DNA of 32,000 nt from Pyrobaculum calidifontis JCM 11548 (lineage in GTDB: Archaea; Thermoproteota; Thermoprotei; Thermoproteales; Thermoproteaceae): NCBI RefSeq assembly GCF_000015805.1, contig NC_009073.1:840001-872000 (forward strand), in the 5' to 3' direction. A program made the translations under genes and the position numbers. The notes beneath the pieces are model-generated. The model was not told the DNA's origin, did no database searches, and was given only the letters and a program-made list of their open reading frames with translations. Positions 18,051-26,826 of the stretch are shown here, in pieces. Position 1 is the stretch's first letter, and every line of letters starts with the position of its first letter.

Positions 18051-19073
18051 CTACGCCACCTCTAACGCCTTTTTCACAGCCTCTCTATGTAGTGGGGTTT
18101 GCCACGCGTAGTGCTTCCCAATGCCTAGCTCTGGGTCTTTCTCGGGGGGCGGCTGGTCGACCCAGAGGTATGGCTTGCGATCCCATACCCTAACAATCAA
18201 GTTCTTCTCGACGAGCATGTCCCTAAGCTCTTGCACCTCCCTCTCCCCAATCCTCCTAAATATCACGTCGGGGTCTTCCACAGCCTCTTTGAGAACTTCA
18301 AGCTTGACGCTGTCTAGTCCAGACACTACATCATAGAGGCTTTTGGATATTACGAGCCTCTCCACCAGTTGTTCCACGTCCCACCTAGTTTCGAAGAGTC
18401 TTTCCAAGAACCTTGGGTTACCGCCTGTCCACTTCCACACTTCGTCGAAGGGAGGCTTGGGGTCGGGTAGCGTTTCATACAACTGGCGAAAGCCCTCCCT
18501 CGCCATGTTCCACGTTACAAAAATAGTGGCCCAGCTGTGCCGACCCACACGCTCCCTCGTGACGCCTTCACTCGACGCCACTAGCACGACTATTTTGTCG
18601 TATTCGGCGGGTGGCCACTCTATCAAGTTGAGTAGAGCTTTGACGTAGGCCTCTGCATTCTCAACTCCAATGGCTTGGAATATGTCGTCCATGAGGACCG
18701 CAACCTTTGCCTTGTGGAATTTTTGGATTATCCACCCTGCCACGTTTATTACCAGGTCTACGGCCTTGGCTAATGGGTCAGAGAATACGCTGAATGCCTT
18801 CTCCACAAGCTCCCTCGCCGAGGGAGAGTATTGGAGGATTTCCTCAGCCCTCTTGGCTAGAGGATTGGCGTATAAGACGTGGTAGCTGAACTCCTCCTCT
18901 AGGACGGCCTTGGCTTGTTTGAGGAGGGCCGTCTTGCCACAGCCCTCGGGGCCGTACACGACGTGTACTGTGTAGGTGCCTCTCTCGGCTAGCTTGGCTA
19001 TTTGCTCCAGGGCCACGTCTCTGTCTGTAAACTCCGTCTCTCTGCCGGCGAAGGCCAGCTTGATCCTCTTCAC
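18051..19073 (-). CDS. Arch_ATPase (PF01637-like AAA+) family protein, tandem copy 1
   Basis: FTDRDVALEQI...VVYGPEGCGKTALLKQ (Walker A), VAVLMDDIFQA (Walker B), TGGNPRFL, C-terminal wHTH-like LVEKNLIV. 340 aa, GTG start. Confidence 0.8.
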   Translation of the reverse strand: MKRIKLAFAGRETEFTDRDVALEQIAKLAERGTYTVHVVYGPEGCGKTALLKQAKAVLEEEFSYHVLYANPLAKRAEEILQYSPSARELVEKAFSVFSDPLAKAVDLVINVAGWIIQKFHKAKVAVLMDDIFQAIGVENAEAYVKALLNLIEWPPAEYDKIVVLVASSEGVTRERVGRHSWATIFVTWNMAREGFRQLYETLPDPKPPFDEVWKWTGGNPRFLERLFETRWDVEQLVERLVISKSLYDVVSGLDSVKLEVLKEAVEDPDVIFRRIGEREVQELRDMLVEKNLIVRVWDRKPYLWVDQPPPEKDPELGIGKHYAWQTPLHREAVKKALEVA

Positions 19074-19091: not shown

Positions 19092-19105
19092 AGTTTAAGA
19101 GGTTA
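19092..19105 (-). promoter_or_regulatory. Conserved 14-nt promoter element TAACCTCTTAAACT upstream of ATPase copy 1
   Basis: Identical 14-mer occurs at 20145-20158 upstream of copy 2, at 19-20 nt from each GTG start. Here it overlaps the stop codon of copy 2. Confidence 0.6.
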
Positions 19106-20125
19106 CTTCCTCGTAACCTCCAGCGCACTCCTCACAGCCTCTCTGTGCAGAGGGGTCTGCCACGCAAAGTAGCGGCCGATGCCCAGCTCTGGGTCTCTCT
19201 CGGGCGGCGGCTGGTCAATCCAGAGAAACGGCTTGCGGTCCCCTATCTCTATTATGAGGTTTTTCTCAGTAAGCTGGCTTATTAGGCTCTTAGCCTCCCT
19301 GTACCTCTTCAAGAGGACGTCTGGGTCTTCGACGGCCTCCTCAAGAATCTGCCTCTCCACGTCAGACAGAGAGTATACGAACCCCACAAGCCCTTTACCG
19401 CCCCCCAACGCCGCCACTACTTCCTCCACCCCCCACCCAACCTTGTAGAAATTTTCGAGGTACCTCGGATTGCCCCCCGTCAGCCTCCACACTTCGTCGA
19501 AGGGAGGCTTTGGCCCCGGGAGTTGCTCGTATAGTTGGCGGAAGCCCTCCCTAGCCATATTCCACATAACCTTGATCGTCGCCCAACTGTGCCTCCCCAC
19601 CCTCTCCCTCGTGACGCCTTCACTCGACGCCACTAGCACTACTACTCTGTCGTATTCGGCGGGTGGCCACTCAATGAGGTTGAGTAGGGCTTTGACGTAC
19701 GCCTCTGCGTTTTCCACACCCACCGCCTGAAATATGTCGTCCATCAACACGGCCACTCTCGATCTTCTAAGCCTCTTCATAATCCAGCCGGCGACGGCTA
19801 TTGTGACATCTACCATCTTGCCCCACGGGTCCGGCGTCGCGCTAAGGACTTCTTTGACTATGCCTTCTGCAGACGGCGAGTACTGAAGGACCTCCTCGGC
19901 TTTTTTGGCCAGGGGATTTGCATAAACGACGTGATACCCATACTCCTCCTCTAGGATGGCCTTAGCTTGTTTCAAAAACGCCGTCTTTCCACACCCCTCT
20001 GGCCCATACACGACATAGACCGGGAAAGTCCCGCGCTCGCCAAACTCTCTGACCTGCTCCAGAGCCCTCTCCCTATCCACAAACTCAACCTCAAGGCCGG
20101 CAAACGAGACCTTGATCCTCTTCAC
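19103..20125 (-). CDS. Arch_ATPase (PF01637-like AAA+) family protein, tandem copy 2
   Basis: Same architecture as copy 1 (VVYGPEGCGKTAFLKQ, VAVLMDDIFQA, TGGNPRYL). The central region shows stretches of near-identical nucleotide sequence with copy 1, e.g. CCTCGTGACGCCTTCACTCGACGCCACTAGCAC. Confidence 0.8.
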   Translation of the reverse strand: MKRIKVSFAGLEVEFVDRERALEQVREFGERGTFPVYVVYGPEGCGKTAFLKQAKAILEEEYGYHVVYANPLAKKAEEVLQYSPSAEGIVKEVLSATPDPWGKMVDVTIAVAGWIMKRLRRSRVAVLMDDIFQAVGVENAEAYVKALLNLIEWPPAEYDRVVVLVASSEGVTRERVGRHSWATIKVMWNMAREGFRQLYEQLPGPKPPFDEVWRLTGGNPRYLENFYKVGWGVEEVVAALGGGKGLVGFVYSLSDVERQILEEAVEDPDVLLKRYREAKSLISQLTEKNLIIEIGDRKPFLWIDQPPPERDPELGIGRYFAWQTPLHREAVRSALEVTRK

Positions 20126-20269: not shown

Positions 20270-20788
20270 CTAGCGCGCGTGTGAGGTAAACTCTACGGCG
20301 ACTGGGTAGGCGCGGTTTGGCTGTGCCTTGGCGTCGATGAGGACCTCCAGTCTCGCGGGGAGGCACTGTCCCGCCTTAAAGACTGCGTTTAGCGGCGTGT
20401 AGTTGCCAAAGCTGTATCCAAACGCTGTCCCGTTGACGTACAGCAGGAAGACCTTCACCTCGGGCGGCGCCTCCACTACCCTCGCCGAGACAGCCACGTC
20501 GGCCCCCGCCACGTTGCACACATACACGTCGTACACGGCGAGGGCACCCACAGGCGCCACAAGGCCAAAAGTCTGCGTCCCATTCCAACCCACCAACACC
20601 GCCAAGGGAACCGCCGACACGCCGCCGCCACCCGCCAGGCCCAGCGCAACCCCCGGCGCCACCCCCACCAAAGAGAACACCACCAACAACAAGAGGGCCA
20701 CCGCGCCGAGCACCACCACGGCGAGAGAAGGCCTCCTTTCCTCCTCTTCCTCCACCTTCGCCACAGCCCTCTCCACCGCCGACGTCAT
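20270..20788 (-). CDS. Membrane-anchored beta-rich protein, paralog of the 204-aa secreted protein (putative anchor subunit)
   Basis: Start taken at ATG 20788 (ATGA overlap with the upstream stop). Acidic N-tail is followed by a hydrophobic stretch (LAVVVLGAVALLLLVVFSLVGV). The C-terminal domain shares VCN...GQC-x10-D...YPVAVEFT with the 204-aa protein. Confidence 0.6.
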   Translation of the reverse strand: MTSAVERAVAKVEEEEERRPSLAVVVLGAVALLLLVVFSLVGVAPGVALGLAGGGGVSAVPLAVLVGWNGTQTFGLVAPVGALAVYDVYVCNVAGADVAVSARVVEAPPEVKVFLLYVNGTAFGYSFGNYTPLNAVFKAGQCLPARLEVLIDAKAQPNRAYPVAVEFTSHAR

Positions 20789-23049
20789 CCCCACGCCTCC
20801 ACAGTCCTCACTATTAAGTACTCCCCCGGCCCAGCCCTGAAGCCTATGTACTGCGCGGCTGGCGGCGCGGCGCAGCCAAAGCGGGCCAACGGGCCACCAG
20901 CGGAGTCTCTCACGATTACGTCGCCCAGGGCGGCGAGTGGCCTAAGCTCTACCCACCTCGACGAGGGGCTGTAGTAGCCGTAGACACAGCCCGCCGACGC
21001 GCCGCGTAGGTAGAGGCCGAAGGCCTCGCCCAGCGCTGAGGTTAGGGCAACGTACTTTCCCTTGCCTGTGAAGTTGGCCACGTATGTAAGCGCGCCTTGG
21101 ACAAGCTGAGTGTAGGCCGTGGCGCCGTTTGCCACGAACAAGGCGTAGTTAGTCTGCCACACGTAGGCCCCCGGCGCCGTGTTGCTATACCAGCCGGCCG
21201 GCAGTGGACAAGAGTAGCTCTGCACAGTGACGGGCCCCCACTCCACTGCGAAGTCGCCTAGGGTGCCATCAGAGTCGGCATAGCTTGCATCTGTCACGAC
21301 TAGGGCCACCGATGTGACAGCCCCCTGCGCAGTCAGCGTTATGGTGAAGGCGTAGTCGCCCGGCGTTATGCTACCAAGCCGCGTAGCCACGTAACGTGTA
21401 CCCGAGGGAGTACAGGCGCCGGCGCTGTCTACTGTACACACCACCTGCTGTGTAAACGGCGAGACTATTATGCCGTTGTAGTCGACGGTGTCGTAGTAGT
21501 AATAGATATACTCCCTATCCGCCGACCCGTCGTAGTCCACGTCCACAGCCACGTCCACATAGACCACGTTGTTACGTGCCTCGTTTCCGCCCCGGATGTA
21601 CCTAACGCCTACGGAGATCTGAGCCCCCGTGGCGTTAAACTTGTAGTCTATGAAAGCCGCCGCAACGCCGTAGTCCGTGGAGGGTGTGCCAGAGGAACCG
21701 CGGGCATCTACCTGCGTCACCAGCCTCCAACTGTCAGTCCTAACAAACACGTCAGTACGATAGCTACCAAGCTCCCAAACCCTCAGCCCGGGGTCACACG
21801 CCGGAGCAACCACAGTTATGGCGAAGTTCTGCCAGTCAACCCAGAAGTCGCCAGAGGGGCTACCAGAGGCGGCGCCCGACGCGTCTACTACCACAAACGC
21901 AATGCCGACGATTCGCCCCACCTGCGTTGTGGGCAGTGTAATAGATATGGTGAAGGAATTGCCACTAGTCACACTACTAACCTTCGTCAGCCTGTACTGA
22001 GGCGGCGGCGTCGTGGTGGGGTCTCCCTGGCTATTTATACTAGCCACGCTACTCCCCCTATTGATAAATATAGACACGATAAGGCCGTTGCCCTGGGCTG
22101 TGTCGTAGACGTAGGCTATGTACTCCACGTCGGCTACGCCGTCTCCGTTCTCGTCAACGCCCACGGAGAGGTAGGCCACGTTGTTACGCGTATCGCCGCT
22201 AAGGGCGTAGGCGCCGGAGACTTGCACCGTAGCCCCAGCCGCTACTACTAGGCCCCAGCGGTCTGCCACTCTGTATATGGCTGAGGAGAGGCCCCAGTCG
22301 GTGCTACTTCTTGCGTCTATCTGCGTCCTTATCGACGAGCCGGTGTACCGCACCGGCGACACTGCAAGGTAAGTGGAGCTGTACACTGCGTATTCGTCGA
22401 TGTAGGTTGGCTTTGAGCTGTAGGCCAAGGAGTCGCTATAGGACGGAAGCGTGGCCGTGTAGGTGCCTCCGGCGCAAGTGTACTGCTGGGTGTAGGTGTG
22501 GCCTGGGCAGGAAAAGCTCCACGACGTCAGTTTCGACATGGGCTCTGCTGTGAAGTTGACCAGCTGTACGGCGTATATGCCTCCTTTGTTGAACTGGGCT
22601 GTGGCGAGGATGGAGTACCGCCCCGTCGTCGCCATAGACCACACGAGAGGCGCCGGGGCGGGAGCGTAGGATCCCGCGTTTTGCGTGTTACCTATCTGCT
22701 GGACGTTACCCAGCGAGATGGTGTACGTCCCGCCTGGGTTTCCGCTACGGCCAACTACCTCAAGCCTTGTCTGCCAGCCGGCGTCTCTGGCGGCGAATAT
22801 GCCCACTGTATATGTCTCGGGCCACCCCGGCTTAAACTTGACGTAGTAGTACGTCACGTTGTACGGCCCAGAGTACTGGTACCACGCCTTCGCCAGTGGG
22901 TACAGCGACTGGTTCAAGTTCTTGGAGATGGGGGCCAGCGTGGCGTTGGCAGCCCACTGCGACGCGTTGAAGTAGGCGAGGAGCGCCAGGGCCCCCGCCG
23001 CGGCGAGGGCCACCAAGGCGAGAGAGGCGGCTCTTGCACGGCGCCTCAT
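20785..23049 (-). CDS. Large (754 aa) secreted/N-anchored multi-domain surface protein with internal tandem duplication
   Basis: N-terminus MRRRARAASLALVALAAAGALALLAYFNASQWAANATL (charged, hydrophobic, then a motif shared with the 204-aa protein). Many N-x-S/T sequons. Two ~180-aa repeats. Confidence 0.7.
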   Translation of the reverse strand: MRRRARAASLALVALAAAGALALLAYFNASQWAANATLAPISKNLNQSLYPLAKAWYQYSGPYNVTYYYVKFKPGWPETYTVGIFAARDAGWQTRLEVVGRSGNPGGTYTISLGNVQQIGNTQNAGSYAPAPAPLVWSMATTGRYSILATAQFNKGGIYAVQLVNFTAEPMSKLTSWSFSCPGHTYTQQYTCAGGTYTATLPSYSDSLAYSSKPTYIDEYAVYSSTYLAVSPVRYTGSSIRTQIDARSSTDWGLSSAIYRVADRWGLVVAAGATVQVSGAYALSGDTRNNVAYLSVGVDENGDGVADVEYIAYVYDTAQGNGLIVSIFINRGSSVASINSQGDPTTTPPPQYRLTKVSSVTSGNSFTISITLPTTQVGRIVGIAFVVVDASGAASGSPSGDFWVDWQNFAITVVAPACDPGLRVWELGSYRTDVFVRTDSWRLVTQVDARGSSGTPSTDYGVAAAFIDYKFNATGAQISVGVRYIRGGNEARNNVVYVDVAVDVDYDGSADREYIYYYYDTVDYNGIIVSPFTQQVVCTVDSAGACTPSGTRYVATRLGSITPGDYAFTITLTAQGAVTSVALVVTDASYADSDGTLGDFAVEWGPVTVQSYSCPLPAGWYSNTAPGAYVWQTNYALFVANGATAYTQLVQGALTYVANFTGKGKYVALTSALGEAFGLYLRGASAGCVYGYYSPSSRWVELRPLAALGDVIVRDSAGGPLARFGCAAPPAAQYIGFRAGPGEYLIVRTVEAWG
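21205..22332 (-). repeat. Intragenic tandem duplication (two ~180-aa domains) within the 754-aa protein
   Basis: Repeat 1 (aa ~240-418) has ...IDARSSTDWG...TRNNVAYLSVGVDENGDGVADVEYIAYVYDTAQGNGLIVS...FTISITL...VVVDASG...GDFWVDW. Repeat 2 (aa ~441-615) has ...VDARGSSGTPSTDYG...ARNNVVYVDVAVDVDYDGSADREYIYYYYDTVDYNGIIVS...FTITLT...VVTDASY...GDFAVEW. Confidence 0.8.
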
Positions 23050-23705
23050 GCAGAAGCCATAAAGTCTAGCTTCTCTCTGTCCTCTGGGCTTAGTGTGTCG
23101 GGGTTCACAGAGGCAAGTATTACCTCAGCCGCGGCCTTGGGGTTGACGTAGTAGTACGTGAAGGGGCCTATCCTCACCGACTTGACGCGTCCCTCCCGCT
23201 CGAGGACGTAGAGGTGCCACTGCACCGAACTCCAAGACCTCCCCATCGCCCTGGCGATCTGCGAAAGAGTGGCGGCGCCCATCTTCTCCACGACGCGGAC
23301 AATCTCCCGCCTGACGGGGTCCTCGGCCCTCGCCGTCTTGACCCTCGCCAAAATGGGGGCAATGGGGGCTAGGAGGAGCTCCCTCCTGTTTGAGAGAAGG
23401 TGGCTGAGGCCGGCCGCCGCGGCGGCGCCCACGGCCAGCGCCAGTATGGGGGCAGAGGGGGGCAACTGCGTGGGAGGCGGCTGGGGGGTGCGCCACTGCA
23501 CGTCAACCCAGCCCGAGAGGAGGAGCGGCTCTCCGCCCGTGTTGACGCAGGCGATGGCCATCCGGCTGTACACCTCAGCCACCCCCGTGAAGTTGCACAC
23601 CGGGGGAAGCGAAGCCGACACTACAGCCGACGTCCCCGGAGGCGGCTGTACCACAAACATCCACATGGTGAGCGGAGCGAGTAACAATAAAACAGTAGCA
23701 TTCAT
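23046..23705 (-). CDS. Membrane-tethered winged-helix (ArsR/MarR-like) transcription regulator with an extracytoplasmic N-terminal domain
   Basis: N-terminal hydrophobic segment (VLLLLAPLTMWMFVV), ~65-aa Cys-containing segment, Pro-rich linker, second TM (ILALAVGAAAAAGLSHLL). Then the wHTH: VRREIVRVVEKMGAATLSQIARAMGRSWSSVQWHLYVLEREGRVKSVRIGPFTYYYV. Confidence 0.7.
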   Translation of the reverse strand: MNATVLLLLAPLTMWMFVVQPPPGTSAVVSASLPPVCNFTGVAEVYSRMAIACVNTGGEPLLLSGWVDVQWRTPQPPPTQLPPSAPILALAVGAAAAAGLSHLLSNRRELLLAPIAPILARVKTARAEDPVRREIVRVVEKMGAATLSQIARAMGRSWSSVQWHLYVLEREGRVKSVRIGPFTYYYVNPKAAAEVILASVNPDTLSPEDREKLDFMASA

Positions 23706-23724: not shown

Positions 23725-23732
23725 CTTAAATG
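23725..23732 (-). promoter_or_regulatory. Possible internal TATA-like box (CATTTAAG) plus SD-like GAGGGGGGTG ahead of the wHTH gene
   Basis: The box overlaps the GTPase stop codon, 20 nt upstream of ATG 23705. The 20-nt spacer (23706-23725) also carries a purine-rich SD-like run, so either internal initiation mode is possible. Confidence 0.35.
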
Positions 23733-24223
23733 TTTTGTGTTGCGCTAAGCCCCTCTAGGAGCACCTTTAGCAGAGTGTCCGGGCTGTCTTTCAGCGCTGA
23801 GGTGTAGTAGACGCGGGTTGCGCCAAGGGCTTTCGCCGCCTCTTCGCCGCGGACAAACGTCCCGCGCTCCTCTGCCAAATCCCGCTTGTTGCCTATCAGA
23901 ATTTTGCGGGGAGCATAGCTGGCAAGCGGCGCAAGCTGAAGGAGCTCCTCCAATGTGCGCCGGTCTGTGACATCGTACATGTAGGCAATTAAGTCGATCT
24001 GGGCGCCGTAAGTCTTAACGGCCTCGTTGTAAAGCGCCACAACCTCTGCGGCGTATTGCCCAGGGGCGTCTAGCAGGAAGAGCTCCATGTCCCCAACCCT
24101 CAGCGCGTAGAACTGGGGCCTCCTCGTCACTCTCGGCGTCCTGGAGAGGCCCAGCAGGCGATATATGTAAGTAGTCTTGCCCACTCCACCCACCCCGAGG
24201 AAAGACACGGCGTGTCGCTTCAT
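23726..24223 (-). CDS. Ras-superfamily small GTPase (165 aa)
   Basis: Internal start M85 of the track ORF (ATG 24223, ATGA overlap with the upstream stop). G1 GVGGVGKT, G3 DAPGQ, G4 NKRD, G5 TSAL. The upstream 84 codons of the track ORF are R/P-rich shadow sequence. Confidence 0.8.
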   Translation of the reverse strand: MKRHAVSFLGVGGVGKTTYIYRLLGLSRTPRVTRRPQFYALRVGDMELFLLDAPGQYAAEVVALYNEAVKTYGAQIDLIAYMYDVTDRRTLEELLQLAPLASYAPRKILIGNKRDLAEERGTFVRGEEAAKALGATRVYYTSALKDSPDTLLKVLLEGLSATQNI

Positions 24224-24582
24224 ACCAGGAACGGGTCGCCTAGCCCCAGCGCCCTGGCCACCACGGCGAGGAGGATAATGTAGACCCAGGCCGCGGCGGC
24301 GAAGAGGTAGAAGGTCCACCTCCGGGTCCACATCCCCCACCAAGTGTAGGCGATAGACACGGCGAGGAGGCTCACCGCGAGTAGGTAGGTGAAGCGGGCA
24401 TAGAAGAGCTGCCACTGCTGTAGGAGGAGGGTTAGGACGAAGCCGGCGATGAAGGAGACGAGCGCCCCAGTCCACGTGGTGAAGGTGGCGCGCCTAGCCA
24501 CGTAGAATATATATACCAGGGGCGCCAGCGCCGCCACTGCGCCGCCAGCCGCCGACAGTAGCATCATCTCGGCGAAATTCAT
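24220..24582 (-). CDS. Small polytopic membrane protein (about 4 TM, 120 aa)
   Basis: Start at ATG 24582 (ATGA overlap). Almost entirely hydrophobic helices separated by short R/W-rich loops. Begins MNFA like its neighbour (MNWA). Confidence 0.6.
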   Translation of the reverse strand: MNFAEMMLLSAAGGAVAALAPLVYIFYVARRATFTTWTGALVSFIAGFVLTLLLQQWQLFYARFTYLLAVSLLAVSIAYTWWGMWTRRWTFYLFAAAAWVYIILLAVVARALGLGDPFLV

Positions 24583-24980
24583 ATGACCCACAGCGTGTAG
24601 CTATTTAAAGCCAGCGCCGCGAGGTAGAGGGCGAATAGGTACACATAGGGGGCGCATGATATGAGCGCCAGGTCGAGGTCGCGTCTCAGGGGCCGCAGGG
24701 CGATGTGTAGCTGGAGGAGCTGCGCCGCGAGGAGGAGGGCGAGGCCCAGCACTGCGGAAAGCCTAAGCGAGGCGAGTCCCCCATAGGCCACGGTAATCCA
24801 TACTCCATAGACGTTGGCCGCCGTCGCCAAGGCGAGGAAGGGGACAAGGACGTCTCGGTGTTTGAACATGAGCTGTGGGGCCAGGCCGTACCTCTTCGCC
24901 ACCACGTTCTCGGCGTAGACTCTGCCGAAGGCCACGGCGAGCCCCGCCGCGACGCCCACGAGGAGGACTGCCCAATTCAT
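24579..24980 (-). CDS. Small polytopic membrane protein (about 4 TM, 133 aa)
   Basis: Start at ATG 24980 (ATGA overlap with the 410-aa gene stop). Hydrophobic helices with short basic loops. Confidence 0.6.
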   Translation of the reverse strand: MNWAVLLVGVAAGLAVAFGRVYAENVVAKRYGLAPQLMFKHRDVLVPFLALATAANVYGVWITVAYGGLASLRLSAVLGLALLLAAQLLQLHIALRPLRRDLDLALISCAPYVYLFALYLAALALNSYTLWVI

Positions 24981-26209
24981 GGCCCCCACGGCTTAAGCCC
25001 CTCTACTCTGACGTCTACGACCACTGGCCAGCCGTCCCAGCCGCCCGTGGGATCGGCCACGACATAGAATGGCCCAAACCAGCCGGTGGGGAGCCCCTTG
25101 GGCAGGGCGAGCCGCTGGAGGGGCGCCTCGGGGCCAGCCACCCAGTATCTAACAGTGCCGTTGTAGAGCCAGACGCCTGGCGAGACCTCCACCGGCGCGG
25201 CGCCTCTGCCTGGGGCAAAGTAGGACACATACGTCGTGAGCCGGGGCTCGGAGGGGAAGTGGTAGTACAGTACCCCGCCCCACATGCCCACGGGGGTGCT
25301 GTACCAATAGGCGTACAGCTCTCCGTAGCCGCTTCCGTTGGCCACCACGACCCTCCTCAGGGTGGTGTTTATATAGCTGGCGTTGAAGGTGTACGTCGCC
25401 AGTATATACCCCTCGGGGGTGGGCACGCCGAATTTGTACTCATAGGCCGTGTAGTTGGGCGGAGGCGGGGTTGGGGCCTTCCCCACGCCGTTGGGGCACG
25501 GCGCGTCGTATATGTAGAGCTGGCCTCTGCCCTCTAGCCTTATGAAGAAGCCGTAGCGGGTCTGGCCCTCCCTTGAGGGCAAGAGAGGCAGCGGGCGCAC
25601 CTGTGGGGCCACTGGCGCATAGCGCAGGGCCTCTGGCAGTAGGAGCGACTTGTTGTACACCGCGGCGCAGCCCACAAGCGGCGTTCTGCCAATTGGCCTC
25701 TCCCAGGCGTATACCTCTCCGCCGCCGACTTGCACAAACTGCCACCCCCTGCCCTCCAGCGTGACCACCGCCCGCCGCGACGCTGGGTACCAGTCCACGA
25801 GCTTTACCCTGACTTCCACGGCCCTCCACCACCCCGACGCGTGGGTGAAGTTGAGGACGCAGCGCCCCTCCCACCCCGGCGGCACCGTTATGTTGACCCA
25901 CTTGGCCCCGGGCGGCGGTGTGAGGAAGTGCGGCGGGACAAATGGGCAGTTCCCCCCGACGTGCACCTCCACAGGCGCCATCAGCTCCACCTTTACCGCC
26001 CTGTCGTACTGCCACGGGGCGTAGGGCGAGCTGTAGAGGTAGAGCACGCCGTCGCGCCACGCGGCGTAGGAGGGGAGGACCCCCGGCCCTACCTCAGCCG
26101 GGGAGCCCGAGGTAAACACATACTCCCCGTAGGGAGAGGACAGGGCGATGAGAAAAACTAGAGAGGGGAGGAAAAACAGAAAAAACCGCTTTACCTTTTC
26201 CCCCTTCAC
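24977..26209 (-). CDS. Secreted protein of unknown function (410 aa), W/Y/P/G-rich
   Basis: N-terminal signal-like MKGEKVKRFFLFFLPSLVFLIALSS and several N-x-S/T sequons. No C-terminal anchor. GTG start 2 nt after the upstream stop. Confidence 0.65.
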   Translation of the reverse strand: MKGEKVKRFFLFFLPSLVFLIALSSPYGEYVFTSGSPAEVGPGVLPSYAAWRDGVLYLYSSPYAPWQYDRAVKVELMAPVEVHVGGNCPFVPPHFLTPPPGAKWVNITVPPGWEGRCVLNFTHASGWWRAVEVRVKLVDWYPASRRAVVTLEGRGWQFVQVGGGEVYAWERPIGRTPLVGCAAVYNKSLLLPEALRYAPVAPQVRPLPLLPSREGQTRYGFFIRLEGRGQLYIYDAPCPNGVGKAPTPPPPNYTAYEYKFGVPTPEGYILATYTFNASYINTTLRRVVVANGSGYGELYAYWYSTPVGMWGGVLYYHFPSEPRLTTYVSYFAPGRGAAPVEVSPGVWLYNGTVRYWVAGPEAPLQRLALPKGLPTGWFGPFYVVADPTGGWDGWPVVVDVRVEGLKPWGP

Positions 26210-26211
26210 CC

Positions 26212-26826
26212 TTACGGACTTGTGCTAAACACTACGTTTACCTGGTACGTGGCAATTACAGTCTTGCCGTCTCTAGCCGACGTAGGTAGCGATGGGTCTA
26301 CTAGCACATAGGCGCCCACAGTGGCACACTGGCCTGGCCCAATGGACACGCTACCTGTGGCGCTCTGTGTGACACTGGTGCCCTGGAATTGTACGTAGTT
26401 AGGCGTGGTGGTGGGGTTGACGAAGTACACTCGGAAGTCTTTTATGTAGCTCTCGTAGTTAGTGGTACCTACTGTGCCGACGGCCACTAGCTTGGCGTAT
26501 AGTGTCCCGCTGTAGTACTTGTTGCAGAGCTGTAGGACGTTGGTGTAGTTGGTGGGGTCGCCGGTGAAGCCCACTATCGAGATTCTCGTCACGTTGTAGC
26601 CGGTGGAGGGGTCGTAGTAGTAGGAGACGTAGACGTATCTGTTGTAGCCGCTACTGTCTGACCTAGTTATTGTGGTGTCTGTGCCGGGGTACTTCATGGC
26701 TGGAGGCAGTGTGGCGTTGATCAACCAGTACGTCAGGTTAGTAAACGTCAGCGTAGCCATCGCCAGCGCGGCAACTGCCAGCGCCGCCAACGCGATTAGT
26801 GGTCTGTAGTTCTTCTTCCTCGCCAT
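26212..26826 (-). CDS. Secreted beta-rich protein (204 aa), candidate filament/matrix subunit
   Basis: MARKKNYRPLIALAALAVAALAMATLTFTNLTYWLINATLPP signal-like N-terminus. T/Y/V/N-rich body, two Cys (LCN, GQC), many sequons. First gene after a strong TATA box. Confidence 0.7.
   Translation of the reverse strand: MARKKNYRPLIALAALAVAALAMATLTFTNLTYWLINATLPPAMKYPGTDTTITRSDSSGYNRYVYVSYYYDPSTGYNVTRISIVGFTGDPTNYTNVLQLCNKYYSGTLYAKLVAVGTVGTTNYESYIKDFRVYFVNPTTTPNYVQFQGTSVTQSATGSVSIGPGQCATVGAYVLVDPSLPTSARDGKTVIATYQVNVVFSTSP

Follow-up and report, generated by a model that had tools for sequence, protein, structure and literature searches.

Evidence for an AbpA-type linking strand on Pcal_0904 and a possible pilin-like domain on Pcal_0903 in the bundling pilus operon of Pyrobaculum calidifontis

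The bundling pilus operon and its shaft pilin

The window analyzed here, a 32,000-nucleotide stretch of the Pyrobaculum calidifontis genome, contains the archaeal bundling pilus (ABP) operon, which has already been published. The operon comprises eight genes, Pcal_0910 to Pcal_0903 (Table 1), in agreement with the description by Wang et al. (2022). The pilin AbpA and its operon are known, and no new system is added. What is new is evidence, drawn from sequence comparison, for AbpA's own linking strand on a 754-aa neighbor, Pcal_0904, and weaker evidence for a pilin-like domain in the small membrane protein Pcal_0903. These two features suggest a tip or starter and an anchor for the pilus. In a literature search, Pcal_0903 and Pcal_0904 were mentioned by no paper besides that of Wang and colleagues, where Pcal_0903 to Pcal_0908 are given generic predictions only (PMC9245690).

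Table 1. Positions of genes and features of the ABP operon within the window
Feature	Position	Strand	Basis or remark
TATA-box-like element, AATATTTAAA	26847..26856	(-)	~25 nt upstream of the abpA ATG; read from sequence
abpA (Pcal_0910), 204 aa	26212..26826	(-)	ABP shaft subunit, TasA-like jelly-roll pilin
AbpA signal peptide, residues 1-24	26755..26826	(-)	cleavage between AMA and TL
AbpA N-terminal donor strand, residues 25-46, TLTFTNLTYWLINATLPPAMKY	26689..26754	(-)	Wang et al. 2022; alignments
abpB (Pcal_0909), secreted, three beta domains	24977..26209	(-)	Wang et al. 2022; hhalign
Pcal_0908, small polytopic membrane protein	24579..24989	(-)	tblastn synteny, hydropathy, alignment
Pcal_0907, small polytopic membrane protein	24220..24591	(-)	synteny, alignment, hydropathy
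Pcal_0906, small GTPase	23726..24223	(-)	Pfam MMR_HSR1 and Ras matches
Pcal_0905, membrane-spanning ArsR-type wHTH regulator with small N-terminal ectodomain	23046..23705	(-)	Pfam, NCBIfam, hydropathy
Pcal_0904, 754 aa, predicted to be secreted, beta-rich	20785..23049	(-)	profile, HMM and synteny evidence
Pcal_0904 predicted signal peptide, residues 1-22	22984..23049	(-)	hhalign register
Pcal_0904 AbpA-type donor-strand motif, residues 23-44, LLAYFNASQWAANATLAPISKN	22918..22983	(-)	hhalign, strand HMM, conservation
Pcal_0904 N-terminal beta-sandwich, ~residues 45-185	22495..22917	(-)	AF2, pLDDT 75-90
Pcal_0904 tandem duplicated ~185-aa beta domains	21214..22362	(-)	BLASTP
Pcal_0903, 172/174 aa	20270..20794 (annotated start 20788)	(-)	AF2, Foldseek, hhalign, HMM
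Pcal_0903 ectodomain, residues 64-174	20273..20605	(-)	alignments, hhalign

The TATA-like position upstream of abpA suggests that the transcript is leaderless or has a short leader. The abpB gene starts 2 nt past the abpA stop, and abpA lies directly upstream of abpB in 10 loci identified by tblastn synteny. Start and stop codons overlap inside the operon. Pcal_0908 is conserved in the operon (tblastn synteny, 9 loci) and Pcal_0907 has a conserved C-terminal motif, GL[GP]DPF; paralogy between the two proteins is not detectable. Assignment of Pcal_0907 to the GxGD (Peptidase_A24-like) proteases was rejected, as the Pfam match reaches E=0.24 only and GLGD reads GLPD in two orthologs. The start of Pcal_0906 is probably M85 of a 249-aa reading frame, and tblastn finds that the gene is not kept in the operons of other species. 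Pcal_0904 follows Pcal_0905 in 8 of the 9 loci of sufficient extent. Two loci (L002 and L008) have no Pcal_0903 downstream of Pcal_0904, and both genes are missing from a rearranged locus (L003). An Rfam scan of the window returned no RNA family.

The 204-aa protein is AbpA itself and not merely AbpA-like, being identical to chain A of PDB 7UEG at 204 of 204 residues (100%; phmmer E=2.3e-131), the AbpA/Pcal_0910 structure of Wang, Cvirkaite-Krupovic, Krupovic, and Egelman (PNAS 2022, PMC9245690). A first-pass annotation of this DNA had rightly called AbpA and TasA to mind. In the cryo-EM filament the chain begins at T25, after signal peptidase I has cut at an AxA site of generic type, and AbpA polymerizes by placing its N-terminal strand (residues 25 to ~46) in the jelly-roll groove of its neighbor, as shown experimentally (Wang et al. 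2022, PMC9245690). The sequence contains the AMA/TL site followed by the conserved donor strand, which is near-invariant in alignments of 18 to 111 AbpA homologs. N37 is glycosylated, with glycan density at N37 and N78 in the structure (PMC9245690). The cysteines C101 and C167 are invariant in the alignment, which shows no sorting motif at the C-terminus. The homology of AbpA to TasA is published, the link being reported by HHpred and structure comparison only (Wang et al. 2022, PMC9245690).

The first-pass annotation had further likened the segment after the hydrophobic region to a SipW-type signal context, a likeness that the searches do not support. Neither PF12389 (Peptidase_M73) nor TIGR04088, the NCBIfam SipW-cognate signal-peptide model, matches AbpA, Pcal_0904, or Pcal_0903 at cut-offs of E<=1 for Pfam and E<=10 for NCBIfam; the AbpA site, as noted, is a generic one. 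No peptidase family is detected in the eight operon proteins with Pfam and NCBIfam, and Wang et al. (2022) likewise report no dedicated signal peptidase in the operon (PMC9245690). The same two collections reveal no chaperone, usher, sortase, or SipW-like gene in the operon. Of the two pilus types the first-pass annotation had invoked, the donor-strand analogy is borne out by the published behavior of AbpA, while the sortase analogy finds no Pfam or NCBIfam domain in the operon.

The AbpA-type strand motif of Pcal_0904

The first-pass annotation singled out three open reading frames, of 204, 754, and 172 aa, as related. Their coordinates were correct and every motif it quoted is found in the sequence. 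Pairwise alignments of the three proteins give nothing significant (BLASTP E 0.09-0.27), so family profiles are needed. With profiles, the relation of AbpA to Pcal_0904 is significant, that of AbpA to Pcal_0903 is marginal, and Pcal_0903 and Pcal_0904 show no relation to each other by either BLASTP or hhalign.

The AbpA segment FTNLTYWLINATLPPAMK matches YFNASQWAANATLAPISK of Pcal_0904 at a pairwise BLASTP E of only 0.092. When ortholog alignments of the two proteins are compared by hhalign, the probability is 97% with E 2e-12 to 6e-11, and without the signal peptides it is 95% with E 2e-8 to 6e-8 over 82 columns. The hhalign score is 54.8, while the best of 100 column shuffles scores 28.1. 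At the level of the sequence families, the likeness is confirmed as real and above chance, and the motif that the first-pass annotation had placed after the hydrophobic segment of both proteins is common to them. A full-length Pcal_0904 profile searched against the whole PDB has AbpA as its sole match (E=0.0022), and tblastn with AbpA reaches the N-termini of Pcal_0904 orthologs in two other loci, L002 (35% identity over 119 aa, E 7e-6) and L001 (E 4e-6).

Once the ~20-aa strand is removed as well, the signal is lost (hhalign E=0.1), so that what the two proteins share amounts in essence to the donor strand. As judged by sequence, AbpA and Pcal_0904 demonstrably have in common only the signal-peptide cleavage context and this ~20-aa strand. 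A second pairing proposed earlier, between the YYY strands YVYVSYYYD of AbpA and YNVTYYYV of Pcal_0904, is not the one that the profiles make, which align YNVTYYYVKF of Pcal_0904 with YNVTRISIVGF of AbpA (77-86).

A strand HMM built from AbpA donor strands alone was run against 2,539 open reading frames. At E<=0.1 it matches only AbpA, the AbpA2 paralog, and Pcal_0904 orthologs, the last with E from 5e-7 to 0.1. It does not pick up P. calidifontis' own Pcal_0904, the most divergent copy of the motif, with LAP replacing LPP. In AbpA numbering, F28, N30, N37, A38, P41, P42, and K45 are each conserved in at least 93% of both families; positions 29, 33, and 35 of the strand are not common to them. 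The conserved positions of Pcal_0904 include the sequon of the glycosylated N37 and part of the alternating pattern of AbpA strand residues 28-36. The sequons at AbpA N30, N37, and N78 align with those at Pcal_0904 N28, N35, and N64, and three such aligned N-glycosylation sequons are consistent with a strand module common to both proteins.

The predicted cleavage site of Pcal_0904, ALA/LL, stands in the same register as AMA/TL of AbpA, and an AxA-like site is found at that register in every Pcal_0904 ortholog examined, cleavage itself being a prediction. In the AF2 monomer the strand segment is disordered (pLDDT<50) and is placed in no sheet. Other exported proteins of the operon served as controls. 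AbpB has no similarity to AbpA (hhalign P 0.1-0.18; strand HMM E >= 9), nor does the Pcal_0905 ectodomain (hhalign P 0.31), and neither is related to Pcal_0904 or Pcal_0903. Since the motif is missing from these secreted proteins, AbpB and Pcal_0905, it cannot be explained as a general signal for export.

After the strand, the model of Pcal_0904 has an N-terminal beta-sandwich, for which Foldseek ranks the FimH lectin domain and chaperone-usher pilins highest, with TM-scores of 0.36-0.43 that are too low for a claim of homology; 7UEG is absent from the top 50 matches. The tandem domains that follow are 39% identical to each other (BLASTP E=1e-19), and each has a loop, RNNV.Y..V.VD.[ND].DG..D.EY, resembling a calcium-binding loop. 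These repeats have no Pfam matches and no PDB sequence matches. Pcal_0904 is proposed to be a strand-donating cap or initiator, possibly with the function of a tip adhesin.

The ectodomain of Pcal_0903

Pcal_0903 is predicted to have an acidic cytoplasmic N-terminus, one transmembrane (TM) helix, a Gly/Ala-rich linker, and a ~110-aa jelly-roll-like ectodomain. In the AF2 model, residues 22-40 form the helix, 42-60 are disordered, and 62-171 form a beta domain at pLDDT>90. Wang et al. (2022), by contrast, describe Pcal_0903 as having four TM segments (PMC9245690). The ectodomain contains three N-glycosylation sequons and a conserved cysteine pair (VCN ... GQC) that aligns with C101/C167 of AbpA. 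The first-pass annotation had reported a C-terminal pattern shared with AbpA at identical spacing. The motifs are there, and the spacing is identical for GQC-x6-VL[VI]D only; CN and GQC are separated by 65 residues in AbpA and 50 in Pcal_0903, and VLxD and the last strand by 17 and 9, respectively.

The relation of Pcal_0903 to AbpA is plausible from the sequences and statistically marginal. BLASTP gives E=0.27, which is not significant, and hhalign a probability of 9-28% (P 6e-4 to 4e-3) with CN, GQC, VLxD, and the last strand paired. The hhalign score is 27.3, which none of 100 shuffles reaches, the highest being 26.2. Among the 2,539 open reading frames, 8 of the 9 next matches of a Pcal_0903 HMM past its own family are AbpA or AbpA2; a profile search of the PDB does not match AbpA. 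Foldseek against the PDB ranks 7UEG_A best by TM-score (0.40 across all 172 aa; rmsd 4.5 A, identity 19%) at E 4.7e-3, with the generic jelly-rolls GOLD, CUB, and CPE ahead by E-value.

It is unlikely, though the reading is the strongest competitor on this point, that the resemblance arose by convergence or chance between small cysteine-containing beta-sandwiches, so that only the relation of Pcal_0904 to AbpA is real. The low hhalign probabilities, a shuffle score so close to the real one, and a Foldseek E-value at which generic jelly-roll folds score alike all speak for such a coincidence, as do the lack of a PDB sequence match and a family of 16 representatives in 1.84 billion proteins, among which no distant relatives bridge Pcal_0903 to AbpA. 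Against coincidence stand the preponderance of AbpA and AbpA2 among the best non-self HMM matches, the rank of 7UEG as best in TM-score, rmsd, and identity among the PDB matches, the alignment of both invariant cysteines, and the location of the gene in the same operon as abpA.

No donor strand is found in Pcal_0903 by the strand HMM or by regex; in the hhalign comparison, its TM helix and linker stand where the N-terminal 60 residues of AbpA align. The ectodomain has an extra strand (~residues 72-78), with no counterpart in AbpA, which might occupy the groove of the domain itself. Pcal_0903 is proposed to be a membrane-tethered strand acceptor, that is, an anchor or terminator. The earlier grouping of one small subunit, one large protein, and one membrane-anchored copy of the same module fits as an overall picture, in which the Pcal_0903 link is marginal and the Pcal_0904 module is the strand only. 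That observation is thus partly confirmed and its interpretation partly supported.

A proposed start and stop for the pilus

In the best model, which has about an even chance of being correct, Pcal_0904 is the strand-donating cap or initiator, AbpA forms the shaft, and Pcal_0903 is the membrane-tethered strand acceptor. The tip and anchor roles of Pcal_0904 and Pcal_0903 are what we infer; the shaft role of AbpA is published. Pcal_0904 would be secreted by the Sec pathway and cleaved in the AbpA register, so that the mature protein would begin with an exposed donor strand of AbpA type. This strand would enter the empty groove of the first AbpA and thereby cap the groove end of the filament. 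Pcal_0904 would probably nucleate assembly, as TapA does for TasA, and its duplicated C-terminal beta domains, at the distal tip, are candidate adhesin domains. Pcal_0903, which lacks a donor strand, would present an AbpA-like jelly-roll on a flexible linker from its single TM helix and take up the N-terminal strand left free on the final AbpA, the one nearest the cell, so that growth stops and the filament is tethered to the membrane. The N-terminal strands would then point toward the cell, with growth at the base, and the proposed assembly would need neither chaperone nor usher.

Precedent for the model is provided by TapA-TasA of B. subtilis (Boehning et al. 2022, PMC9674648; Roske et al. 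2023, PMC10151520). The N-terminus of TapA resembles the TasA donor strand, gives the first strand, and nucleates a chaperone-free donor-strand fiber. In the ABP operon, unlike that system, Pfam and NCBIfam find neither a dedicated peptidase of the SipW type nor a match to PF12389 or to a SipW-cognate signal. The strand is found on the 754-aa Pcal_0904 rather than on AbpB, the protein with the TapA fold, and Pcal_0904 has large domains that TapA lacks.

Wang et al. (2022) suggested AbpB (Pcal_0909) as a possible strand-donating initiator, whereas the AbpA strand motif is found here on Pcal_0904. If AbpB does initiate, Pcal_0904 may be an independent surface protein or adhesin and Pcal_0903 an unrelated small membrane protein, a combination that appears improbable. 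Its attraction is that the first AbpB domain has a TapA-like fold and that abpA and abpB are the only genes common with the ABP loci of Thermofilales, which have neither Pcal_0904 nor Pcal_0903 (PMC9245690). AbpB, however, has no AbpA donor-strand similarity (P>=0.1; strand HMM E>=9), and it is on just such N-terminal similarity that nucleation by TapA rests (PMC10151520, PMC9674648). The likeness of Pcal_0904 to AbpA would then stem from a common context of secretion, cleavage, and N-glycosylation or from an ancient partial duplication, which accords with the lack of significant similarity beyond the strand and the failure of the N-domain model to find 7UEG. Context as the sole cause is countered by conserved positions that extend beyond the cleavage site to the N37 sequon and the alternating pattern, and by the missing motif in the other secreted operon proteins, AbpB and Pcal_0905.

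Still less probable is an uncleaved Pcal_0904 N-terminus, by which the protein would be a membrane-anchored base with a juxtamembrane strand plugging the cell-proximal AbpA groove and Pcal_0903 would be otherwise employed, for instance to aid assembly or to act as a sensor alongside the Pcal_0905 regulator: the single N-terminal TM domain annotated by Wang et al. (PMC9245690), the one N-terminal hydrophobic segment (residues 5-30, hydropathy), and the leucine at -3 in several orthologs, a weaker signal peptidase I site, are outweighed by the AxA-like site at the exact AbpA register in all orthologs examined, by the need for a strand abutting a TM helix to reach the groove without a linker, and by the better suitability of Pcal_0903, with its 20-residue flexible linker and no strand, as the anchor.

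The division of labor proposed for Pcal_0904, AbpA, and Pcal_0903 is the same as that of the haloarchaeal tafi, in which TafC forms the tip, TafE the adapter, TafA the shaft, and TafF the anchor (PMC11821415; PMC12337348). There too, a multi-domain tip gives the first N-terminal strand, a one-helix jelly-roll-like protein takes the last, and a transcription regulator is encoded in the locus. The tafi subunits differ in being Tat-exported and from another pilin group, a 2025 PNAS paper having placed tafi in a third group apart from ABP and thread-like filaments. The tafi locus also has its own signal peptidase, TafD, and the membrane helix of TafF is described as C-terminal whereas that of Pcal_0903 is N-terminal; the likeness drawn here is one of described roles.

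The thread of Sulfolobus acidocaldarius is likewise a crenarchaeal donor-strand filament, built from Saci_0406 (Gaines et al. 2022, PMC9715654). Its co-transcribed paralog Saci_0405, with an N-terminal strand and no acceptor site, has been proposed either to nucleate the filament as its distal cap or to terminate it proximally, according to polarity (PMC9715654). Saci_0405 has the same size as the subunit and no Sec signal, whereas Pcal_0904 has 754 aa, a predicted Sec-type signal, and significant likeness to the pilin in the strand only; no membrane-anchored acceptor has been proposed for threads. Chaperone-usher pili (Fim/Pap) combine donor-strand complementation of beta-sandwich subunits with specialized tip and terminator subunits, as is proposed here, and the Pcal_0904 N-domain is weakly like the FimH lectin domain at the TM-scores given above. 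The logic is reversed, however, since the tip adhesin of chaperone-usher pili offers a groove but lacks a strand, while the candidate tip Pcal_0904 has a strand.

A more far-reaching form of the model is possible, and is held more tentatively. The ABP would be a self-propagating strand-exchange chain that starts with Pcal_0904 rather than AbpB and stops with Pcal_0903, with fixed polarity, a calcium-loop adhesin, and AbpA2 as adapter. The genes for start and stop would both lie at the far end of the operon and would have escaped notice when the system was first described. The duplicated calcium-loop domains of Pcal_0904 would be the cell-to-cell or surface adhesin of bipolar bundles, and the AbpA2 paralog of some species would be a TafE-like adapter.

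Concrete, testable role assignments for two uncharacterized operon genes are a useful increment in themselves. Should Pcal_0904 start and cap the filament and Pcal_0903 anchor it, three points that the 2022 structure paper left open would be settled: the orientation of the bundling pilus relative to the cell, the way in which a chaperone-free donor-strand fiber starts and stops on an archaeal membrane, and what mediates adhesion. The topology published for Pcal_0903 and the role suggested for AbpB would need correction, and the initiator, shaft, and anchor logic proposed for tafi and TapA/TasA would reach the crenarchaeal ABP lineage.

The archaeal bundling pilus locus

The 204-aa product of the minus-strand ORF is identical in 204/204 residues to PDB 7UEG chain A, labeled "Pilin" (phmmer E=2.3e-131). 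That chain is AbpA (Pcal_0910), which Wang, Cvirkaite-Krupovic, Krupovic, and Egelman (PNAS 2022, PMC9245690) reported as the archaeal bundling pilus (ABP) subunit of Pyrobaculum calidifontis. The window therefore contains the published eight-gene ABP operon, and the feature is real and represents the founding example of an already described system. Mature AbpA begins at T25, after AMA↓TL; its N-terminal strand inserts into the jelly-roll groove of the neighboring subunit; and glycan density is present on N37, N78, and N93 (PMC9245690). The same study put forward AbpB as a possible strand-donating initiator, gave generic predictions only for Pcal_0903 to Pcal_0908, and noted that Thermofilales loci have only abpA and abpB in common with this operon (PMC9245690). 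A literature search for Pcal_0903 and Pcal_0904 found no mention of either beyond Wang et al. 2022 (PMC9245690).

Features of the ABP locus and AbpA2 genes of comparison loci
Feature	Position	Strand	Description
abpA (Pcal_0910)	26212-26826	-	ABP subunit
abpB (Pcal_0909)	24977-26209	-	
Pcal_0908	24579-24989	-	small polytopic membrane protein
Pcal_0907	24220-24591	-	small polytopic membrane protein
Pcal_0906	23726-24475	-	small GTPase; mechanical 249-aa ORF, overlapping Pcal_0907
Pcal_0905	23046-23705	-	membrane-spanning ArsR-type wHTH regulator
Pcal_0904	20785-23049	-	754 aa
Pcal_0904 tandem duplication	21214-22362	-	~185-aa beta domain; copies 39% identity, E=1e-19
Pcal_0903	20270-20788/20794	-	172/174 aa
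PF01637 "archaeal ATPase"	19103-20125	-	340 aa, directly downstream of operon
PF01637 "archaeal ATPase"	18051-19073	-	340 aa, tandem paralog
AbpA2, locus L004	10734-11330		
AbpA2, locus L005	10727-11320		
AbpA2, locus L006	7457-8074		
AbpA2, locus L003	2-313		truncated

Several start and stop codons of the operon genes abut or overlap, and a TATA-like AATATTTAAA precedes the abpA ATG by ~25 nt. The true start of Pcal_0906 is probably M85 (nt 24223), leaving a short overlap of a few bases with the Pcal_0907 stop; because its homolog in comparison locus L001 is on the opposite strand, upstream of abpA, this GTPase is not a fixed member of the operon. The C-terminus of Pcal_0907 is a conserved ALGL[GP]DPF motif, and the protein faintly matches Peptidase_A24 (GxGD prepilin peptidase, E=0.24); Pcal_0908 carries two invariant Asp residues (HRD, RDL), and no paralogy between the two is detectable. 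They may constitute a platform for assembly at the membrane, or a peptidase. Pcal_0905, conserved in 10/10 loci, consists, from the N-terminus, of a hydrophobic segment, an ectodomain of ~60 aa bearing sequons and two conserved Cys residues, a Pro-rich stretch, a second TM segment, and the wHTH on the cytoplasmic side, and may act as a sensor that regulates pilus expression. In the operon, searches detected no sortase, chaperone, usher, SipW-type peptidase, or SipW-cognate signal. Several metagenomic Pcal_0903 homologs (P0166-P0169, P0172) have N-terminal extensions (MTSREVEFVDRDVAL...) like the N-terminus of the PF01637 ATPases, which suggests recombination or gene-calling artefacts at the junction.

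In several Pyrobaculum genomes a further AbpA paralog, AbpA2, is encoded between abpA and abpB; the P. calidifontis window lacks it. AbpA2 has ~34% identity to AbpA and retains the CN/GQC cysteines as well as a donor strand of its own (SV[IM]NVTYWYVNTT.PPV.KY); by analogy with the haloarchaeal adapter TafE, it may serve as a minor pilin or adapter.

The donor strand of Pcal_0904

The first-pass annotation paired AbpA with Pcal_0904 through a motif following the hydrophobic segment. The motif is present; BLASTP of the two proteins gives only a weak match (18 aa, E=0.092), but comparison of families is stronger. The material comprised AbpA homologs, Pcal_0904 homologs, and ten ABP loci taken from genomes and MAGs of Pyrobaculum and Thermoproteus. 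With AbpA as the query, tblastn reaches the N-termini of Pcal_0904 orthologs in L001 (E=3.6e-6), L002 (35% identity over 119 aa, E=6.8e-6), and L009 (E=4e-4). The Pcal_0904 N-domain family aligns to the AbpA family by hhalign with Prob 97% (E 2e-12 to 6e-11), and with both signal peptides removed at Prob 95% (E 2e-8 to 6e-8, 82 columns); the score is 54.8, whereas column-shuffled controls (n=100) average 13.7 and reach at most 28.1. Deleting the signal peptides and the first ~20 mature residues leaves no hhalign signal between the two (E=0.1), so the significant shared module is the donor strand itself. Three further, independent tests point the same way: a PDB-wide profile search, a strand HMM, and a comparison by position. 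Searched against 177,635 distinct PDB sequences, the full-length Pcal_0904 profile has AbpA as its sole match (E=0.0022).

An HMM of the donor strand (24 columns, AbpA sequences only) was searched against all 2,539 ORFs from six-frame translation of the window and the loci, where it recovered AbpA (E 1e-18 to 1e-14), the AbpA paralog (~1e-7), and Pcal_0904 orthologs (5e-7 to 0.1), with no other ORF below E=0.6. Pcal_0904 of P. calidifontis itself was missed by this HMM among the 2,539 ORFs; its motif copy is the most divergent, with NATLAP instead of NATLPP. Position by position, F28, N30, N37, A38, P41, P42, and K45 are common to both families at at least 93%, and positions 29, 33, and 35 are unrelated. 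Conservation in residues 28-36 looks partly alternating, as expected with one buried strand face, the orientation being read only from N37 glycosylation. Every Pcal_0904 ortholog has an AxA-like site placed two residues ahead of a [TSA]-F-x-N motif, in the register of the proven AbpA cleavage, and AbpA/Pcal_0904 sequons pair as N30/N28, N37/N35, and N78/N64. The suggested pairing of YYY strands did not hold, as the profiles instead align YNVTYYYVKF with AbpA YNVTRISIVGF. On these sequence comparisons, homology of the strands is very probable; the link is solid and so far unreported in the searchable literature.

Beyond the strand, the AF2 model of Pcal_0904 residues 23-214 (mean pLDDT 68.9) has its first 19 residues, the strand, disordered (pLDDT<50) and then a beta core (pLDDT 75-90). 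Foldseek matches of the N-domain to the PDB are weak (TM 0.36-0.43), with the FimH lectin domain and pilins of the chaperone-usher type (AggA, CooA, CfaB, CupB6) at the top, and 7UEG is not among the top 50; the globular part is thus not demonstrably AbpA-like. Each of the ~185-aa repeats, which match nothing in Pfam or PDB sequences, contains a D-x-[ND]-x-D-G-x-x-D loop within a conserved RNNV.Y..V.VD.[ND].DG..D.EY, a pattern that resembles a calcium-binding loop.

Pcal_0903 and the AbpA fold

AbpA and Pcal_0903 had been described as sharing C-terminal motifs at identical spacing. The motifs are present and the GQC-x6-VL[VI]D spacing is equal, but other spacings are off by 15 and 8 residues. 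BLASTP between the two gives E=0.27. The Pcal_0903 ectodomain family, enlarged by few representatives from 1.84 billion proteins, aligns to AbpA by hhalign with Prob 9-28% (P 6e-4 to 4e-3), a score of 27.3 exceeding 100/100 shuffles (best 26.2), and this alignment reproduces the proposed residue correspondence (CN, GQC, VLxD, last strand). The two invariant cysteines of the AbpA family align with those of the Pcal_0903 family. Among the 2,539 ORFs, AbpA or AbpA2 takes 8/9 places next after the ectodomain HMM's own family (E 0.003-0.96); the Pcal_0903 profile does not match AbpA in the PDB. Two secreted beta-rich controls from the same operon, AbpB and the Pcal_0905 ectodomain, show no resemblance to AbpA, Pcal_0904, or Pcal_0903 (P 0.016 to 0.5).

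The AF2 model of Pcal_0903 (mean pLDDT 78.4) contains a TM helix (22-40), a disordered Gly/Ala-rich linker (42-60), and a beta-sandwich (62-171, pLDDT>90). The single helix contradicts the published "four predicted transmembrane domains" with a signal sequence (PMC9245690). Hydropathy peaks at 48-69 and 78-96 correspond to the linker and first strands, whose hydrophobicity would lead a hydropathy-based predictor to over-count TM segments; judged from the model, the four-TM topology is probably an over-prediction. Foldseek finds no PDB match below E=1e-3. 7UEG_A ranks 8 by E-value (4.7e-3), and it leads the matches listed in query TM-score (0.40 across all 172 aa, the domain being only ~110), in rmsd (lowest, 4.5 Å), and in identity (highest, 19%); the remainder are generic jelly-roll, GOLD, CUB, and CPE domains. 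Global hhalign pairs the first Pcal_0903 strand (LAVLVGWNGT) with AbpA ISIVGFTGDP, and Pcal_0903 has one extra strand compared with AbpA. On this alignment, Pcal_0903 resembles an AbpA jelly-roll without the donor strand and B'/B'' hairpin, the TM helix and linker being substituted. We consider an AbpA-like fold fairly probable and the link to AbpA suggestive.

Pcal_0904 follows Pcal_0905 in 8/9 loci of sufficient extent, and Pcal_0903 follows Pcal_0904 in the window, L001, L004, L006, and L007. L002 (downstream of 15493) and L008 have a Pcal_0904 ortholog with no Pcal_0903 ortholog after it; the adjacent L008 ORF (15455-16294) encodes a 280-aa secreted protein with many N-x-[ST] sequons and a helical heptad-like sequence. 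Neither gene was found in L003 (1-4600, MAG Pyrobaculum sp. GMQS_201907_bins_3), whose order is AbpA2, abpB, Pcal_0908, Pcal_0907, Pcal_0905, and a full abpA ortholog adjoining the aroD/chorismate-mutase-like gene whose counterpart in the window sits upstream of abpA. This order may be a true rearrangement or a mis-assembly.

A proposed assembly mechanism

The division into shaft, tip, and anchor first read from the sequence is partly supported, with the links to Pcal_0904 and Pcal_0903 differing in strength and the roles of both proteins inferred by analogy. The same logic has been put forward for the Bacillus subtilis pair TapA/TasA, in which the N-terminus of TapA is similar to the donor strand of TasA and starts fibre formation (PMC9674648, PMC10151520), for the putative Sulfolobus thread cap Saci_0405, which has a strand and no acceptor site and would be a distal cap or a proximal terminator depending on thread polarity (PMC9715654), and for haloarchaeal tafi, with TafC as the tip that provides the first strand, TafE as adapter, and TafA as shaft (PMC11821415, PMC12337348). 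The counterpart of Pcal_0903 would be the anchor TafF, which is jelly-roll-like and has one TM helix (PMC11821415, PMC12337348). In contrast to these systems, ABP has generic Sec-type signal peptides and no dedicated peptidase, its strand-bearing accessory protein is Pcal_0904 rather than the TapA-fold protein AbpB, and its candidate anchor has an N-terminal helix.

Cleavage of AbpA at T25 and its polymerization by N-terminal donor-strand insertion are established (PMC9245690). Cleavage of Pcal_0904 in the same register would expose an AbpA-type strand. Inserted into the vacant groove of the first AbpA, this strand would cap the filament there and probably nucleate its assembly. Every AbpA secreted afterwards would take the previous subunit's free strand and then free its own, until Pcal_0903, a pilin-like domain with no strand, tethered by a TM helix and 20-residue linker, took the last one, terminating and anchoring the filament. 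We give this whole model, with Pcal_0904 as cap and nucleator, AbpA as shaft, and Pcal_0903 as anchor, an even chance. With Pcal_0904 the first donor and Pcal_0903 the last acceptor, Pcal_0904 and its duplicated C-terminal domains would sit at the distal tip of the pilus, with the N-terminal strands pointing cellward.
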